DNA of 49,204 nt, from the sequence record DRR723986_13874, one strand, 5' to 3'. The position numbers and the translations under genes are program-made. Below, piece by piece: positions 42,593-49,204 of the stretch. Position 1 is the stretch's first letter; each line of letters opens with the position of its first letter. The notes below the pieces were generated by a model, which saw only the letters and a program-made list of their open reading frames with translations, was not told the origin of the DNA and made no database searches.

Positions 42593-43213
42593 CCGTTGAA
42601 GCTAAAAGTGGAGCTATGAGACCGAGGATGGGCCATACCACCCATGCAGCAGGTACGATGCCAAAATCCGTAATGGAAGATCGCCTGCCCTTAAAGCAGC
42701 TCAACACCATCTCAGTGTGACAAGCTGCACCTCTGCTGTACGCTCAGCGACCAGTATGGCCGCGCTTCGAGCACGCTGGTCGCGTGGCGGCCCCTGCTGT
42801 CGAAGCGGCTGCAAGTCGCCGACGGTCACGGCTTGCGACACCACCCGAGTGCTGCTCGAACGGCTATCGAGCAGGCTTCCGCATTACTTCTCAAGGGCGT
42901 TTGCAAGCCCGCGTTGATGACTCAAGGCTGCAGTGTTCCGGCTTACTTATTGATGAGCGACCCCTTCGCCTCAATCGGCACCTGTTCACCGACAACTGTT
43001 CGTGGTCGAACTCGTGTCGGCGCCCAGTACAGGGCTTTCGTGCTAGACGTATTACGGAAGCTATTGGACTTCCTACCTAAGACTGCGGTGCGAGGTGCTA
43101 CTGATCGCATTTGCGTTCCTTGCCTGCTAAAATGCTCGGCGGTCTGAATCGAGAAATTGCAAGTTCCGACTGCCAATTCGTTATCTCCACTACTCTGTTG
43201 CTTGGCTCCTCCG

Positions 43214-44785
43214 ATGACTAGATTGCTCCCCCTGGATCGATGGCACCTCGTTTACCTCAACCTGCTGTGTTTGTTTTCCATGCCAGTGGTTGGTTCGGCG
43301 AAGGAGAACGCGTCGAAGCCAAATGTGATTGTGATAATGGCGGATGACCTGGGGTACGGCGACGTGTCGTGCTATGGGGCGCAAAGTGTTGTAACGCCTG
43401 CGATTGACGCACTGGCCGCAGAGGGAGTTCGTTTTACGAGTGGTTACTGCAGCGCGTCGACCTGCACACCGACACGCTATTCCTTGCTGACCGGAAATTA
43501 TGCCTTCCGAACAAAGGGAACAGGCATTGCTCCTCCGAATTCTCCAGCCATCATCCAGCCTGGTACGGAGACGGTCGCGTCTCTATTGAAAAGTTCGGGA
43601 TACAAGACCGCGGTTGTCGGTAAATGGCACCTGGGCTTGGGAGGAAGCGAAGGGCCGGACTGGAACAACAAGCTTGCACCTGGACCACTTGAAATCGGCT
43701 TCGACCAGTGCTTCCTACTTCCGACCACCAACGACCGTGTTCCGCAGGTGTACGTACAGGATCATCGAGTCCTCAATCTTGACCCGGATGATCCGCTGTG
43801 GGTGGGAAAGAAAAAGCCGAGCGATGACCATCCGACAGGGATCACGCATCGCGCAACACTGAAAATGGACTGGTCCCATGGCCACAACTCGACAATTCAC
43901 AATGGGATCAGTCGGATTGGTTTCTACACAGGTGGTCATGCCGCCAGATTTCGTGACGAGGACTTGGCCGACAAATGGGTCGAGAAGTCGGTCGAGTTCA
44001 TTGAAGAGAATCAGGACAACCCGTTCTTCTTGTTTTTCGCATCGCACGACATCCATGTCCCACGAATCCCACACGAGCGATTTCAAGGTGCGACAACGAT
44101 GGGATTCCGAGGTGATTCGATTGTGCAGCTTGATTGGTGCGTGGGAGAGTTGATGGCTACGCTTAAGCGGCTCAATCTGGAAGAGAATACGTTGGTCGTT
44201 TTCTGCAGTGACAATGGTCCAGTCCTGGACGACGGATACAAGGATGGTGCAGTCGAACGGATCGGTGCACACCGAGCAGGCGGGCCGTACACAGGAGGGA
44301 AATATAGTGTCTACGAAGGCGGTACGCGGACTCCCTTTATCACGCGTTGGAAAGGGAAGATCAAACCACAGGTATCCGACGAATTGGTTTGCACAATTGA
44401 TCTCGCCGCAAGCTTGGCGTCAATCGTAGGGCAAGAAATCCCGAAACAGGCCTGTACCGACAGCCTTGATGTCTCGGCCGCGCTGCTCGGCCAGGCTGGT
44501 GCCAAGGGACGTGAGGAACTGGTTCAGCAGGACAATGGCAGTAGCGGGACGTTTGGACTTCGAATCGGCAACTGGAAATTGCATCGGTCCGATAAGAAGC
44601 GAGCCCGCAACGTTCTCGTCGAAGCCAAGCTTGCGAACGTGCAGGTGCCACGGTACCAACTCTTCGATCTCTCCAATGATCCTGCGGAGAAGGAGAACGT
44701 TATCGAAGACAATCCTGACGTAGCCGAGCGAATGATCGCCCGATTGGATGAGATCATTGCCACCGGACGAACGCGAAACGAATAG
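43214..44785 (+). CDS. Arylsulfatase (S1 family), secreted
   Basis: PNVIVIMADDLGYGD, CTPTR motif, GKWHLG, SDNG, EGGTRTP; signal-peptide-like N-terminus. Confidence 0.92.
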   Translation: MTRLLPLDRWHLVYLNLLCLFSMPVVGSAKENASKPNVIVIMADDLGYGDVSCYGAQSVVTPAIDALAAEGVRFTSGYCSASTCTPTRYSLLTGNYAFRTKGTGIAPPNSPAIIQPGTETVASLLKSSGYKTAVVGKWHLGLGGSEGPDWNNKLAPGPLEIGFDQCFLLPTTNDRVPQVYVQDHRVLNLDPDDPLWVGKKKPSDDHPTGITHRATLKMDWSHGHNSTIHNGISRIGFYTGGHAARFRDEDLADKWVEKSVEFIEENQDNPFFLFFASHDIHVPRIPHERFQGATTMGFRGDSIVQLDWCVGELMATLKRLNLEENTLVVFCSDNGPVLDDGYKDGAVERIGAHRAGGPYTGGKYSVYEGGTRTPFITRWKGKIKPQVSDELVCTIDLAASLASIVGQEIPKQACTDSLDVSAALLGQAGAKGREELVQQDNGSSGTFGLRIGNWKLHRSDKKRARNVLVEAKLANVQVPRYQLFDLSNDPAEKENVIEDNPDVAERMIARLDEIIATGRTRNE

Positions 44786-44847
44786 TGTTGAGCCTCACTT
44801 TCGATTCTCAGAACCGGATTGCCTTTCCTACACCACGGGGATAATTG

Positions 44848-45189
44848 ATGTCGACAATTTTTTCAAAGATCATCGCAGGTGAGATTCCTGCCAAGATTGT
44901 ACATGACGACGATCATTGTTTGGCATTTCATGATGTCGCCCCGCAGGCACCGGTGCATATCTTGGTCATCCCCAAGAAGCCTATCGTTTCGGTCGAGCAT
45001 CTCGAACCAGAGGACGCTCCGTTGATCGGCCATATGTGGTTGATGATCCAAAAGGTTGCCCGCGAGGCTGGGCTGGGCGAAGGCGGCTATCGCGTCGTGG
45101 TGAACTGTGGCAAGGATGGCGGTCAGAGCGTCGATCACCTGCATTACCACATACTTGGCGGACGTAGCCTAACTTGGCCGCCAGGTTAA
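44848..45189 (+). CDS. hinT: Histidine triad nucleotide-binding protein
   Basis: TIFSKII, DVAPQAPVHILVIPK, GQSVDHLHYHILGGR, C-terminal WPPG. Confidence 0.95.
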   Translation: MSTIFSKIIAGEIPAKIVHDDDHCLAFHDVAPQAPVHILVIPKKPIVSVEHLEPEDAPLIGHMWLMIQKVAREAGLGEGGYRVVVNCGKDGGQSVDHLHYHILGGRSLTWPPG

Positions 45190-45250: not shown

Positions 45251-45413
45251 CTGTCGCAGCCACCACGAACTTTCGTTAGTGAAAGTCACGGCGAACTGCG
45301 ACCCGCAAGAATTTGACCAACTCGCCCAGTTGCCTTCGGTCTATACGCATCAAATGAGCGCATTAGCGTACGGACCAAAGGAGTCCTGCTAGTATGCCAA
45401 GCTCTTGGGCATC

Positions 45414-45659
45414 ATGGATGATGCAATACCAAGGGATCGATACTGCGCGGGCAACATCAGTTTGGAGTCTTGCTCAGCGATTTACGTTGAACTGGAACCT
45501 GATGGAGAGGATCGCACGCAGTTTATGTTTTGGCGTCACCGAGCACCGTTTCGCGAGTTCAGCTTTTCCGGCAACCGCATTCGCGACCTGAAGCCTGGTG
45601 ACTCAGTGGTCCATCAAGGCAAGCAGCGCCGCGTGAAGGTGGTCAAGATCTTTCGCTAG
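45414..45659 (+). CDS. Small hypothetical protein (about 81 aa)
   Basis: ORF fills the gap between hinT and the convergent propeller gene; globular-looking sequence (FWRHRAPFREFSFSG...LKPGDSVVHQG). Confidence 0.55.
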   Translation: MDDAIPRDRYCAGNISLESCSAIYVELEPDGEDRTQFMFWRHRAPFREFSFSGNRIRDLKPGDSVVHQGKQRRVKVVKIFR

Positions 45660-45696: not shown

Positions 45697-46860
45697 TTAC
45701 AAGTCGATGCACCTAATACTGGACTTGCTTCGCAAATAGAGCCTATTGCCGACGATGGCCGGATGCGAATAGATTTTCTGTGGCTTTTGAAACAATGTCG
45801 TCCGGCTCTGAATCGCCTTTGTCCCGTCGGTCTTCAGCAGTAACAACTCGCCGTCTCCAACAACAAGCAACCGGTCGGGTGAGGCAATCAACGACGCGTA
45901 GTCGCTAAGGGCTGGATCCCGAATTCGCCACAACTCTTTAAGGTTGTCGGAAAGATCAAGACAGTAAAGGAACTCACGCACGCAGAACAACTTATCACCA
46001 ACAATTACCGGTGTCGTCATGTCTGGGCGAAGACGTTTGTTCGATGCAATCAACTTGGGAGTCGAGTCGGCTGCGGCGGGCCACTGAAACTGCCGAGTGC
46101 CATTGTTGCGCGTCGCAACGATTAGCGTATCCTCATACAGCAACGGGGTAGGAACATTGAAGTCGCCTCCAGCAAGCGGCGATACGCTCCAGAGGCGTTT
46201 TCCAGTTTCGGCGTCCCAAGCGCCGAGAGTCGTTTTATCGTGACCAACGATAACAGAGTTAGCACCAACGTTCGCAGCATTGAATGAACCATAAGATGGC
46301 AGTCCGCCAGGGCTTTCCCAAATGATTGCACCTGTTGCAGGATCCAGTGCGACCAGAGAGGCGGTCTCTGCCCCAGGGGCAAGGATTAGCTTGCCGTCAA
46401 CGACCATTGGCGAACCGCAGTAACCCCACGGCAGCTCTTCGGCTATCGGGAAGTCGTCGCGCATGGATCGTTCCCAACGAACCTTGCCACTTGATAATTC
46501 GATGCAGAGCAGATTCCCGGTCGCACCAAAGCAGTAGGCATGCCCTTCATGCAACAGCGGAGTGGCTCGCGGAGAATTGCCATAGTCGTATTGGGCGATG
46601 GCAAGTCGCCGCACGGCCCAAAGCTCTTCGCCGGTCTTCGCGTCCAGGCACCGAAAGCAATCTTGAAGATCGTCAAAATCACGATCACCAAAAACGACAA
46701 AGGACTCGTCGGCAGCAATGCCTCCGAGTCCTTCACGTGCTAAATCAGTCTGCCAAACAACCTTCGGTACATCAGGAAGTTCTTTGGGAAGCCAGTCGAT
46801 CCGGCCGTCACGACCGGGACCGCGCCAACCTATCCAGCTCGCCGAGTCTTTGCGCTGGCT
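45697..46860 (-). CDS. PQQ-like (BamB-type) beta-propeller domain lacking its own start; probable C-terminal part of a frameshift fusion with the upstream gene
   Basis: Frame is open from 46920 to 45697. It contains WIGWRGPGRDG (the family's typical N-terminal WxxWRGPxRxG motif), CLDAKTGEELW, SPRATP and ALDPATGAIIW repeats, and ends HPAIVGNRLYLR. No ATG/GTG/TTG lies upstream of the WRGP motif in this frame. Confidence 0.8.
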   Translation of the reverse strand, partial: SQRKDSASWIGWRGPGRDGRIDWLPKELPDVPKVVWQTDLAREGLGGIAADESFVVFGDRDFDDLQDCFRCLDAKTGEELWAVRRLAIAQYDYGNSPRATPLLHEGHAYCFGATGNLLCIELSSGKVRWERSMRDDFPIAEELPWGYCGSPMVVDGKLILAPGAETASLVALDPATGAIIWESPGGLPSYGSFNAANVGANSVIVGHDKTTLGAWDAETGKRLWSVSPLAGGDFNVPTPLLYEDTLIVATRNNGTRQFQWPAAADSTPKLIASNKRLRPDMTTPVIVGDKLFCVREFLYCLDLSDNLKELWRIRDPALSDYASLIASPDRLLVVGDGELLLLKTDGTKAIQSRTTLFQKPQKIYSHPAIVGNRLYLRSKSSIRCIDL

Positions 46861-47750
46861 TTTTTTTTGCCGACCGTTGTAGCAGATTCCTCTGAGTAAT
46901 CGAGAAAACCGGCCAGGGATTCAAGCGCTTCTAAGACTTGCGGTTCGCGTGGGATAGACTTGAGAGCCAGGTCAATTGCGGACTTCTTCTGAGCACTCAA
47001 TTCATCTGACAGGAACAGGGTGACAAAGGGCACTTCTGCGGTCTTGCCAACCACGCGAAGGTCACCTTTCTTGATTGTGCCACAGCCTTCCAGCAGGGGT
47101 TGAGCGTAGCTAGAGATGACTGCAGCCGTCTTGGACTTTGGTCCAAGGTCAATCACCTTGCATGCCCCATCGCTGCAAGCTTCATCGATCTTCCGCAGTT
47201 CTTTCGGGACGCGAACCTTGGCGCTCTTGAGCAGTGCGAGGGCAGCGTCATGTTTCTCACGCGCCGACTGTGCACCGAAAATGATAGTGTATCCGGCCAA
47301 GTCTGATATCGATTTCGCTGGGTCTTCACGCCCCACAACGATTAGACCGTGCTGCGTGATGCCACCAGATTTGTCGCTAAGTTGGTAGGCTGGCGAGGCT
47401 TTCTTCTTCAATTCAGCAAGATCGGACTGAACAACGGAGTGCTTTCCGATGACGATGTCCGCGCCGCCTGCCTTCTTGATGCCCACGTCCAGTGAAGATG
47501 CGAACGCGAGGTTAACTTCCACGCCGAGCTCCCGCTCGAGCAGCTTTGCGAGAACTTCATAGTCGCGCTGCGCGTATCCTTCCACACATGGGCAAGAAAG
47601 CGGTGCCGCGAGCGGATCCATGACGATCATCGAGAGCGTCTTGGCTTCACCGGCCCAGGCCTTGCTGGCCAACTGCGATGCGGAAAGCGCGGCAGCAATG
47701 CACATTGCAATCGCCGCCGAAAGTAGCTGTTTATTGCTCATCTTGTTCAC
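46830..47750 (-). CDS. PhnD/SsuA-type periplasmic substrate-binding-fold protein with Cys motifs
   Basis: Signal peptide ending AWA; RDYEVLAKLLERELGVEV, GLIVVGREDPAKSISDLAG and LRVVGKT resemble phosphonate-binding proteins; SCPC, ACSDGAC and EGCG motifs. Start 47750 (GTG) or 47741 (ATG). Confidence 0.75.
   Translation of the reverse strand: MNKMSNKQLLSAAIAMCIAAALSASQLASKAWAGEAKTLSMIVMDPLAAPLSCPCVEGYAQRDYEVLAKLLERELGVEVNLAFASSLDVGIKKAGGADIVIGKHSVVQSDLAELKKKASPAYQLSDKSGGITQHGLIVVGREDPAKSISDLAGYTIIFGAQSAREKHDAALALLKSAKVRVPKELRKIDEACSDGACKVIDLGPKSKTAAVISSYAQPLLEGCGTIKKGDLRVVGKTAEVPFVTLFLSDELSAQKKSAIDLALKSIPREPQVLEALESLAGFLDYSEESATTVGKKKASAKTRRAG
46860..46868 (-). other. A9 slippery site joining the PhnD-like frame to the propeller frame (-1)
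   Basis: GGC AAA AAA AAA GCC in frame 0. One extra A or a -1 shift gives AAA AGC CAG CGC AAA GAC TCG GCG AGC TGG ATA GGT TGG CGC GGT. Confidence 0.65.
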
Positions 47751-49008
47751 GCCCCGCTTCTTCGTCGACGGTGGTTAGCGATGCTGTCCGTTGTGTCGTG
47801 TCGTTCGGCTTGGGTTGCATGACGGCGATGTGATTTCGCGTCAGGTCAAGCATGTACACGTCGCCACTCGCTGGAGACACCGCAATCGACACGTTCTTGC
47901 ATCCTGGCACTAGATCGACGTCGCCGATAATGGCAACGCGATTGCCGCTGGCATCGAACTTCTTGATACGTCCCAATGAGGCTTCCGCGGTGTAAACAAA
48001 TCCTTCTTGGTCGAAGCACACGTTCATTGGATTGCAGCAGGAGCCAAAACCTTCAATGCCCTTACGGTCCGACTTCCCCCAGTGGGTGATTTCTTTGCCA
48101 TCGAAATCGTAATGCACAACTCGATCTGCAGAATTCTCAGCGACGAACAACCCCTTGCTGCAGCATTGGACGTCCATTTGCCCACAGCAGCCGCGTAGCC
48201 CTTCAACGATGATCTTCCCGTCGGAAAGCTCTGCGTTGGTCTTCCAAATGTCGTAGCCGTAACCGGAAAGCGCACGCGTGGTCACAAAGACGGCATCTTC
48301 TGAGGAACAAATGGACGAGATTCGCATCTTTGACTTCACCAAGACTGCAACTTGTCGCTTGATCGCTTCCTCTGTGGGGCCGCCCTCGCCATCATCATCG
48401 TCATCCATGGCAGCCAATTGTTCTTTGTAGATTTCTAGCGTGTCGGGCAGTGATTGAAGCATCTGTTTCTCAGCCGACGAGAGCTCTTTCTCCTCTGCAC
48501 GTTTTTCAATCTGTGCAATGATGGATTCATACATCTCGATTTGTCGCTCCAGCGTGCCACGATTGGACGTACGCTTGAGGCTTTCAATGGCAGCTTTGCG
48601 AAGCTCGGCATCATCTTCTTTTAGCCGCAGTGCATGCGGTGAATCGGCTTTGCCAAGCAGCTTTCCGGTTGGTGAAAAATGATAGATCTGCCCCTCACCT
48701 CCGACCAAGACACTTTGGTCGACACGAACATTCACCGCCTCGGGTTTGAACGGGATCTCCCAGCTCTTAAGGACGGAGCCTTGATCATCCAGAATTCGCA
48801 GTTCGCCAGGACCGCTACCACAAGCGGCGACGATATTGCCATTGCCAGCTAGGCAAAAGGCATTGATCGTCGGTGCTCCCTTTTCCATCGAGATCGTTCT
48901 GGATTGCCGGTGCGTTGACATGCTTTCAACGCTTGCTGAGTCGGCAGCCACGGCGACCGAAAAGCTAGCGGCGCAAGCGGTCATCGCTAGAGCTAAACAA
49001 ATCTTCAT
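47731..49008 (-). CDS. Secreted NHL-repeat (beta-propeller) protein with vicinal-Cys motifs and a helical insert
   Basis: ATG 49008 with GGAG 8 nt upstream; signal peptide MKICLALAMTACAASFSVAVAA; NHL-like repeats (PEAVNV, LFVAENSADRVVHYDFDGK, NPMNVCFDQEGFVYTAE); GCCGQMD, QCCS, SCCNP and PGCK motifs. Confidence 0.85.
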   Translation of the reverse strand: MKICLALAMTACAASFSVAVAADSASVESMSTHRQSRTISMEKGAPTINAFCLAGNGNIVAACGSGPGELRILDDQGSVLKSWEIPFKPEAVNVRVDQSVLVGGEGQIYHFSPTGKLLGKADSPHALRLKEDDAELRKAAIESLKRTSNRGTLERQIEMYESIIAQIEKRAEEKELSSAEKQMLQSLPDTLEIYKEQLAAMDDDDDGEGGPTEEAIKRQVAVLVKSKMRISSICSSEDAVFVTTRALSGYGYDIWKTNAELSDGKIIVEGLRGCCGQMDVQCCSKGLFVAENSADRVVHYDFDGKEITHWGKSDRKGIEGFGSCCNPMNVCFDQEGFVYTAEASLGRIKKFDASGNRVAIIGDVDLVPGCKNVSIAVSPASGDVYMLDLTRNHIAVMQPKPNDTTQRTASLTTVDEEAGREQDEQ

Positions 49009-49204
49009 CCTTGTTTCTCCTGCTTTGGGCGAGTGAGGGGGCGTGACGCACGAAGGCGTTCGGGGCGTCACAGCGATTTATGCCTGCGAACCAATTTGCG
49101 CAGCGCATAAGCGCTCTTTGGGCAATGTAGCAGTTTGCTTGTTAGAAGGCAAAGATTTAATGCGCTTGCCGCAAGGCAACGCAGTTATTAAATCAAGGCA
49201 GTTT

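Follow-up and report, generated by a model that had tools for sequence, protein, structure and literature searches.

The window analyzed here is the whole of a 49,204-nucleotide (nt) stretch of DNA, sequence record DRR723986_13874. Toward one end of it, the minus strand carries two overlapping reading frames that meet at a run of nine adenines (A9): the first encodes a PhnD-like binding protein, and the second, which lies in the -1 frame, encodes a beta-propeller of the PQQ/BamB type that has no start codon ahead of its domain. A first-pass annotation, made from the letters of this DNA, had proposed that a programmed frameshift or transcriptional slippage at the run fuses the two products. Our analysis points the same way, and from sequence comparison we think it very probable that the A9 run serves programmed recoding and is conserved in this role across Planctomycetota, whichever type of slip, by RNA polymerase or by the ribosome, takes place there. 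The features of the junction, all on the minus strand, are as follows.

46830..47750, minus strand: zero-frame open reading frame (ORF) for a PhnD/SsuA-like binding protein, 306 amino acids (aa), PF12974; GTG at 47750, alternative ATG at 47741
46860..46868, minus strand: A9 run, proposed slippage site; the zero frame reads AAA AAA AAA
46830..46832, minus strand: zero-frame stop TAG, 27 nt past the run; it overlaps the W-I-G-W codons of the -1 frame
46804..46836, minus strand: -1-frame motif WIGWRGPGRDG, start of the propeller domain, upstream of any canonical start codon
45697..46860, minus strand: -1-frame BamB/PQQ-like eight-bladed propeller, 387 residues, PF13360; the frame is open back to 46920
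46612..46614, minus strand: GTG, first canonical start in the propeller frame; a start here would lose about 74 domain residues and provide no signal peptide

Rereading the sequence bore out the layout first described for this locus. The binding-protein ORF begins with a signal-peptide-like leader and ends GGC AAA AAA AAA GCC ... TAG, that is, with three lysines plus nine residues. The -1 frame is open from stop to stop over 46920..45697 of the minus strand, or 407 codons, and encodes WIGWRGPGRDG at 46836..46804, just past the A9 run. Its first ATG, GTG, or TTG is the GTG at 46614, which lies 222 nt (about 74 codons) beyond the W codon. A start at that GTG would indeed truncate the propeller domain, the loss being about 74 residues. 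By arithmetic from the coordinates, one extra A yields 297 + 387 = 684 codons in a single fused frame, as had been proposed, and the heptamer A_AAA_AAA is present inside the run. The junction A9 is the single A/T run of eight or more in the entire window. As the frames read, the propeller frame is reachable from the zero frame solely via a one-base slip at the run.

Two halves in the protein databases

A protein search with the 407-codon -1 frame returned 995 matches. Among the top 120, which we inspected, 11 are long, being either PF12974 plus PQQ fusions of 669 to 689 aa or fragments of such fusions (P0013, P0014, and P0035 are among the 669- to 689-aa in-frame fusions), and the other 109 are short, at 320 to 421 aa. 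The N termini of the short homologues are ragged; in 92 the start lies beyond the W..W.G motif, in 17 it precedes the motif by a few residues, and no signal-peptide-like leader was found among the short propeller homologues listed. Searching with the PhnD-like ORF gave 1543 matches, and in the top 120 stand-alone PhnD-like proteins the sequence KK[KN] forms the exact C terminus in 92 and lies within the last 20 residues in 115. The same contig often supplies both halves, as for Rubripirellula obstinata, with P0176 and P0066. Together, the KK[KN] ends and the presence of both halves on one contig suggested that the break between the halves is conserved and that a lysine/A-run is conserved along with it.

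Survey of the junction in planctomycete loci

An alignment of 36 PhnD-like proteins was scanned against one genome per Genome Taxonomy Database (GTDB) species, which gave 156 relatives, and the best 80 were kept as numbered loci (L001 and so on). The frame relation between the two halves was classed for the 79 loci that have both, by use of tblastn with the two window halves and a junction script; L071, without a propeller, falls outside the 79. The classes were as follows.

Propeller in the -1 frame, 52 loci: A9 in 46; A10 in 4 (L013, L022, L023, L064); A8 in 1 (L074); no run in 1 (L039)
Propeller in frame, 25 loci: no run of at least six in 20; A6 in 3; A10 at the equivalent position in 2 (L014, L037)
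Propeller at a +1 offset, 2 loci: L024, with A8; L058, which breaks past the motif

A run of A8 to A10 and a frame break therefore recur together in orthologues: of the 52 loci with a -1 offset, 51 have the run, and the exception, L039, has a further frame break. In-frame fused homologues exist as well, at 25 of the 79 loci, and in two of these the A10 is the sole difference. None of the outcomes that the first-pass annotation had set against its own proposal was encountered, as orthologues are not uniformly in-frame fusions and the run is conserved, and the annotation's slippage or frameshift interpretation draws support from the offset loci, their runs, and the natural fusions.

For what follows, the run-anchored set has 52 rows (the 51 -1-offset loci with a run, plus the window), and the motif set has 51 rows (50 loci plus the window). 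Individual junctions can be very compact. On the complete chromosome of Novipirellula sp. SH528 (L020), the junction reads GTA AAA AAA AAG TAA, and in R. obstinata the zero frame ends ...AKKK and the -1 frame opens slightly upstream. At L018, L033, L046, L048, and L049, the overlap of the ORFs is down to 3 to 6 nt plus the run. The zero-frame stop directly abuts the run in 39 of the 52 rows (TAG in 24, TAA in 11, TGA in 4). Bremerella sp. JC770 (L037) has a single 680-aa ORF with the linker ...AAKKKVTS....

Three of the in-frame fusions (L056, L061, and L075) carry an A6 run in the interdomain linker; that of L056 (...DKKV...) could, on its sequence, be a remnant of an A9 site. Separately, extra frame breaks are found within the propeller ORF, away from A runs, at L031, L039, L057, L058, and L077, and these could be bin assembly errors or decaying copies.

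Selection on the run and on the offset

When the 52 rows are aligned on the run, conservation is limited to [G][C]-A9-G-T-A-[G/A], and the flanks carry about 0 bits. In 46 rows, the first A of the run is the wobble base of a preceding codon, and that codon varies: GCA (25 rows), GTA (9), TCA (5), CCA (2), CTA (2), ACA, CGA, and TTA. Of the 1598 lysine codons that these genes have away from the junction, 775 (48.5%) are AAA. The 620,634 nt of loci contain 52 A/T runs of at least nine, every one of them at the junction; 0.9 such runs would be expected from base composition and at most 5.5 under a first-order model.

The codon phase of the run is not fixed. It is phase 0 in the window, L001, and L074 and phase 1 in L022, L023, and L059, and the phase-0, the phase-1, and the four A10 loci each require exactly one added nucleotide to join the frames. 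For the window and L001, this means that changes to either side of the run must have compensated for each other. Comparison of the rows thus indicates that the offset is conserved separately from the length of the run.

The structural model of the in-frame fusion L037 has a mean predicted local distance difference test score (pLDDT) of 85.5. Its residues 282 to 294, with pLDDT below 50, are the sole internal low-confidence segment and lie between two folded domains, and the KKK, at residues 288 to 290, is inside this modeled linker. With the lysines in a disordered linker, protein structure does not explain their conservation. Judged from the alignments, the pattern at the junction is one of selection and not of descent or chance.

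A propeller without its own start

In 38 of the 51 rows of the motif set, the stretch of the propeller frame that runs from its upstream stop to the motif is free of ATG, GTG, and TTG; the other 13 have GTG or TTG only, never ATG. The distance from run to motif is 12 to 96 nt, which is too short for a signal peptide, and in the fused relatives the propeller follows a binding domain that has a typical N-terminal leader. In the window, no promoter-like site was found on the minus strand between the two ORFs. The approximately 75 window codons from the motif to the first start are 68 to 71% identical to those of L001 and L002, and their ratio of nonsynonymous to synonymous substitution rates (dN/dS) against these two loci is about 0.10, a rough value, as dS is saturated. 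The codon comparison indicates that this start-less stretch is translated and under strong purifying selection.

Probable programmed recoding and its possible mechanism

In the explanation that we favor, standard decoding would produce a secreted PhnD-like binding protein that ends soon after the three lysines. A subset of expression events would gain one base at the run and carry the frame on into the propeller. The outcome would be a fusion of about 684 aa bearing the sole signal peptide available to the propeller. RNA polymerase would be mainly responsible, by placing one nontemplated A on a T9 template and so making an A10 mRNA. The same protein would result if the ribosome shifted by -1 on the heptamer within the run (A_AAA_AAA in the window, A_AAA_AAG in most relatives), and this route may have a part in it. 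On the sequences, we lean slightly toward the version led by RNA polymerase. By analogy with other recoding systems that make two products, the ratio of free binding domain to fusion probably matters.

Two features of the run favor a polymerase. Its length, at least nine A's in 51 of the 52 rows, exceeds by three what would suffice for a heptamer, and its codon phase can vary. PMC1088944 and PMC5009743 describe bacterial slippage as efficient from nine A/T, with A9/T9 slipping efficiently in vivo, give the length of the RNA:DNA hybrid as 9 to 10 base pairs, and report that in many bacteria selection against slippage sets in at nine A/T. Structured or Shine-Dalgarno-like elements that would assist a ribosomal shift were sought and did not emerge. 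GC-rich pairing past the site, which the first-pass annotation had pointed out, is not borne out as significant: the 80 nt fold at -31.9 kcal/mol, with z = -0.90, and 24 of 200 shuffles are at least as stable. Across the 52 rows, no conserved structure was found, the mean z of the minimum free energy being -0.72 downstream, -0.52 upstream, and -0.29 in a coding control, with 5, 6, and 2 rows, respectively, having z below -2. The 52-row alignment shows no conserved upstream purine-rich or Shine-Dalgarno-like block, and an Rfam scan of 46600..47100 at E values up to 1 gave no match. The window has A_AAA_AAA, no adjacent stop, and no significant structure, and polymerase slippage is therefore the better guess for this genome.

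Some observations weigh against programmed slippage led by the polymerase. A G follows the run in 40 of 52 rows, giving A_AAA_AAG, and a zero-frame stop is adjacent in 39 of 52; both are features that selection for a ribosomal shift would be expected to produce. Away from the junction, the loci contain 10 runs of A8, with 4 to 20 expected, so such runs are not depleted, and avoidance of slippery runs by these genomes is not demonstrable. There were at least a few origins of plain fusions that lack a run, so some lineages can do without the short product. For the two genomes with A10 in frame, the cause could be switching at the DNA level. Moreover, it is from sequence conservation that we infer slippage, its level, and the product ratio.

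Purely ribosomal -1 frameshifting, in which two tRNA-Lys slip back one base on A_AAA_AAG (A_AAA_AAA in the window), aided in most relatives by the abutting zero-frame stop, and the mRNA stays A9, is possible, if rather doubtful. Every run holds a valid X_XXY_YYZ heptamer, A_AAA_AAG in the 40 rows just mentioned and otherwise ending in C (9 rows) or T (3 rows), and A_AAA_AAG is the E. coli dnaX site and the best -1 heptamer in E. coli (PMC5009743). That the adjacent stop may be of any of the three types suggests, too, that the stop itself is selected. Yet a heptamer calls for only 6 or 7 A's, whereas 51 of 52 rows have at least nine, including a wobble A contributed by eight different codons, and neither a downstream hairpin nor an upstream Shine-Dalgarno-like element is conserved, although the adjacent stop could be another stimulator. 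The window and L001 lack even that stop, as well as significant structure, and their A_AAA_AAA is reportedly far less shift-prone than A_AAA_AAG in E. coli (PMC5009743). The high shiftiness of AAG depends, moreover, on a sole tRNA-Lys (PMC5009743); we found no tRNA genes in the window, and a scan of 60 of the 80 loci found tRNA-Asp alone, in 3.

The remaining alternatives dispense with programmed recoding. Phase variation, with A9 and A10 interconverting during replication to switch the fusion on and off in subpopulations, would suit the hypermutability of homopolymer runs (PMC1088944), the A10 in frame at L014 and L037, the A8 of L024, and the extracytoplasmic nature of the proteins, which many phase-variable proteins share. 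We consider it unlikely: of 54 junction runs, just 2 are switched "on," the consensus sequence has exactly A9 in 46 independent species, all four loci that combine A10 with a -1 offset are still "off," and only 1 of the top 120 propeller homologues is a KKK-type fusion. A merely tolerated "off" state would also let the start-less propeller decay, and instead it is under strong purifying selection. That these are two ordinary genes, the propeller arising by reinitiation past the stop or from a noncanonical start, is how public annotation has them (e.g., P0176 and P0066 of R. obstinata), and of the 13 rows with GTG or TTG before the motif, 5 have it within about 21 nt past the run. Against this, 38 of 51 rows have no canonical start there and none has ATG; the called N termini are ragged, with 92 of 109 past the motif; there is neither room nor sequence for a signal peptide, while fused relatives export the propeller behind the leader of the binding domain; no promoter-like site separates the ORFs on the minus strand; and the invariant A9 and fixed -1 offset would be left unexplained, all of which makes separate genes quite improbable. 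Finally, no sequencing error is commoner than a single-base frame break at a homopolymer, but the same state occurs in 51 other assemblies from many projects, among them the complete chromosome L020 and the isolates L012 and L033, and a stop placed for the A9 reading has evolved in 39 of 52 rows. A homopolymer assembly error or strain-specific pseudogene in the window is thus scarcely credible.

Comparison with known recoding systems

Programmed recoding at this run would have parallels in several known systems. Thermus thermophilus dnaX also has a sense-strand A9 in a chromosomal gene, tau and gamma share an N terminus, and stops lie near the run (PMC1088944, PMC5009743). It differs in that its slipped product is the shorter one and its long product a single ORF, whereas at the planctomycete site it is the longer product that would require the slip; the two systems also involve unrelated proteins, and those of the planctomycetes are extracytoplasmic. 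E. coli dnaX is read with the help of an upstream Shine-Dalgarno-like stimulator and a downstream hairpin. Its heptamer, A_AAA_AAG, is found in 40 of the 52 planctomycete rows, but its stimulators are not conserved in them, the planctomycete run is three A's longer, and the window has A_AAA_AAA.

In mxiE and spa13 of Shigella flexneri, one nontemplated nucleotide at a homopolymer joins ORF a to ORF b, so that the longer product is slip dependent, and spa13 reportedly makes about 25 to 30% slipped product (PMC1088944, PMC5009743). Those genes belong to plasmid-borne type III secretion in one genus, while the planctomycete site is chromosomal and spans several orders. In insertion sequence (IS) elements, overlapping -1 ORFs (orfA-orfB) are joined at an A-rich run, with both polymerase and ribosome routes known (PMC1088944). 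The planctomycete locus is not mobile; it has the NHL-like gene described below and ordinary chromosomal neighbors and is syntenic in 77 of 80 loci. In insect endosymbionts, correction of transcripts at poly(A) runs reportedly restores the frame in 12 to 50% of mRNAs (PMC5009743). There, the lesions are recent and lineage specific and the genomes AT-rich and decaying, while the planctomycete DNA is about 55% G+C and the site is old and selected.

To our knowledge, dependence on programmed slippage is known for few nonmobile bacterial genes. A full-text literature search, which took in the available parts of PMC3711429, PMC1088944, PMC5009743, and bioRxiv 10.1101/2025.10.02.679949, gave no prior mention of the site; the GeneTack survey (PMC3711429) covers 2 Planctomycetes genomes only, and its supplementary list could hold a cluster for it. 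As far as we have seen, the mechanism is of a known type, and the novelty lies in the gene family, in the clade, and in how broadly the site is conserved. If the recoding is real, the site would be among the most widely conserved cellular recoding sites of bacteria outside prfB and dnaX and the first in Planctomycetota. The roughly fifty carrier species, which include the cultured R. obstinata, Novipirellula sp. SH528, and Bremerella cremea, would offer a natural system for studying how the choice between polymerase and ribosome evolves. There is also a consequence for annotation: hundreds of "BamB" or "PQQ-like" entries of 350 to 390 aa, which begin at ragged positions and lack a signal peptide, probably represent C-terminal halves of recoded fusions.

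Distribution, history, and gene neighborhood

With taxa as recorded, the recoded state occurs in Pirellulaceae (Rubripirellula, Rhodopirellula, Novipirellula, Bremerella, and Anatilimnocola) and also in one Botrimarina, in Planctomycetaceae including Fuerstiella, and in a Gemmatales bin. In one clade, of Lacipirellulaceae and Pirellulales, most loci are plain fusions. We built a FastTree phylogeny of 72 rows, dropping those with partial or broken propellers (L006, L016, L024, L031, L039, L057, L066, and L077). Under midpoint rooting, the recoded state lies on both sides of the root, and there are at least 4 changes of state, with gain and loss left undirected. The tree has one large fused clade, and the fused rows L027, L045, and L072 are scattered within recoded clades. 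The window is sister to L001, from an uncultured Pirellulaceae bin, with a support of 99 and 73% identity over 655 columns; between these two, the propeller is 69.7% identical over residues 2 to 380.

Two further placements are recorded here. One Rubripirellula bin holds two diverged paralogous loci, L011 with A9 (contig CBDCUW010000003.1) and L064 with A10 (contig CBDCUW010000005.1), both of them -1 recoded, and L064 forms a basal group with L055 in the tree. L009 (JAYVRU010000150.1), which is labeled Candidatus Kuenenia sp., is sister to the Planctomycetaceae bin L021, with a support of 100, and its contig may be misbinned.

The one recurrent neighbor is an NHL-like gene. Of the 80 loci, 77 have a homologue of it upstream on the same strand, no more than 600 nt away in 75 cases, which makes the unit a three-part module of NHL-like, PhnD-like, and BamB-like parts. 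In the window, its stop (47733..47731) reaches 11 nt into the next gene if the latter starts at ATG 47741, an overlap that suggests translational coupling. Beyond the NHL-like gene, no conserved neighbors were found, with the flanks differing among L020, L033, and L044, and the small ORFs past the propeller are not homologous between loci. The neighbors in the window are the following.

47731..49071, minus strand: upstream NHL/SGL-like Cys-rich beta-propeller gene, an ORF with weak Pfam matches (SGL and Phytase-like) and an NCBIfam ScyF-like match at 1.5e-8
43157..44785, plus strand: sulfatase, PF00884; downstream neighbor, not recurrent at other loci
44845..45189, plus strand: HIT-family protein, PF01230; downstream neighbor, not recurrent at other loci
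45405..45659, plus strand: 84-aa ORF of no family; downstream neighbor, not recurrent at other loci

Taking these results together with the survey, it seems probable that the run is an ancient one-base slippage site, present in at least three orders (Pirellulales, Planctomycetales, and Gemmatales), held by compensating changes on both sides, and setting a fixed ratio of free binding protein to fusion that acts with the NHL-like propeller. The locus would thereby flag a three-part extracytoplasmic module, composed of an NHL-like propeller, a Cys-rich PhnD-like protein, and a BamB-like propeller, in which stoichiometry, by analogy, seems to matter.

Protein families and folds

In Pfam, the first ORF matches PF12974 (Phosphonate-bd) at E = 6e-16, with 59 bits against a cutoff of 27, and the -1 frame matches PF13360 (PQQ_2) at E = 2e-21, with 77 bits. 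More specific assignments were tried and rejected. For a true PhnD, TIGR03431 gives 22 bits against a cutoff of 261 and TIGR01098 gives 25 against 112; for the BamB equivalog, the scores are 49 bits against 285 (TIGR03300) and 47 against 423 (NF008351); and for a PQQ-dependent dehydrogenase, TIGR03075 gives 41 bits against 480. All of these curated cutoffs are widely missed, and the names PhnD, BamB, and PQQ therefore hold at the level of fold only. The structural comparisons are of the same kind. The best PDB relative of the binding domain, found with a family profile, is 5jvb at E = 4e-4, and the domain is distant from solved PhnD structures. The propeller of a modeled in-frame homologue matches BamB (3prw) at E = 3e-19, with a template modeling (TM) score of 0.73 and 17% identity, and on this model the likeness to BamB is one of fold and not of family membership.

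PhnD-like folds can bind nonphosphonate ligands. A 2024 paper on bacterial sterol-binding domains (PMC10942540) reportedly names PhnD 18 times. No ATP-binding cassette (ABC) permease or ATPase genes were found among the neighbor genes of the loci examined. A complex prediction for two copies of the binding domain (residues 36 to 290) scored 0.02, against a mark of 0.32. Three motifs, S-C-P-C, C-S-x-G-A, and E-G-C-G, are invariant in the 36 family members (residues 52 to 55, 192 to 196, and 221 to 224 of the 306-aa ORF), and their conservation suggests a disulfide or a metal site, which would be atypical for phosphonate-binding proteins.

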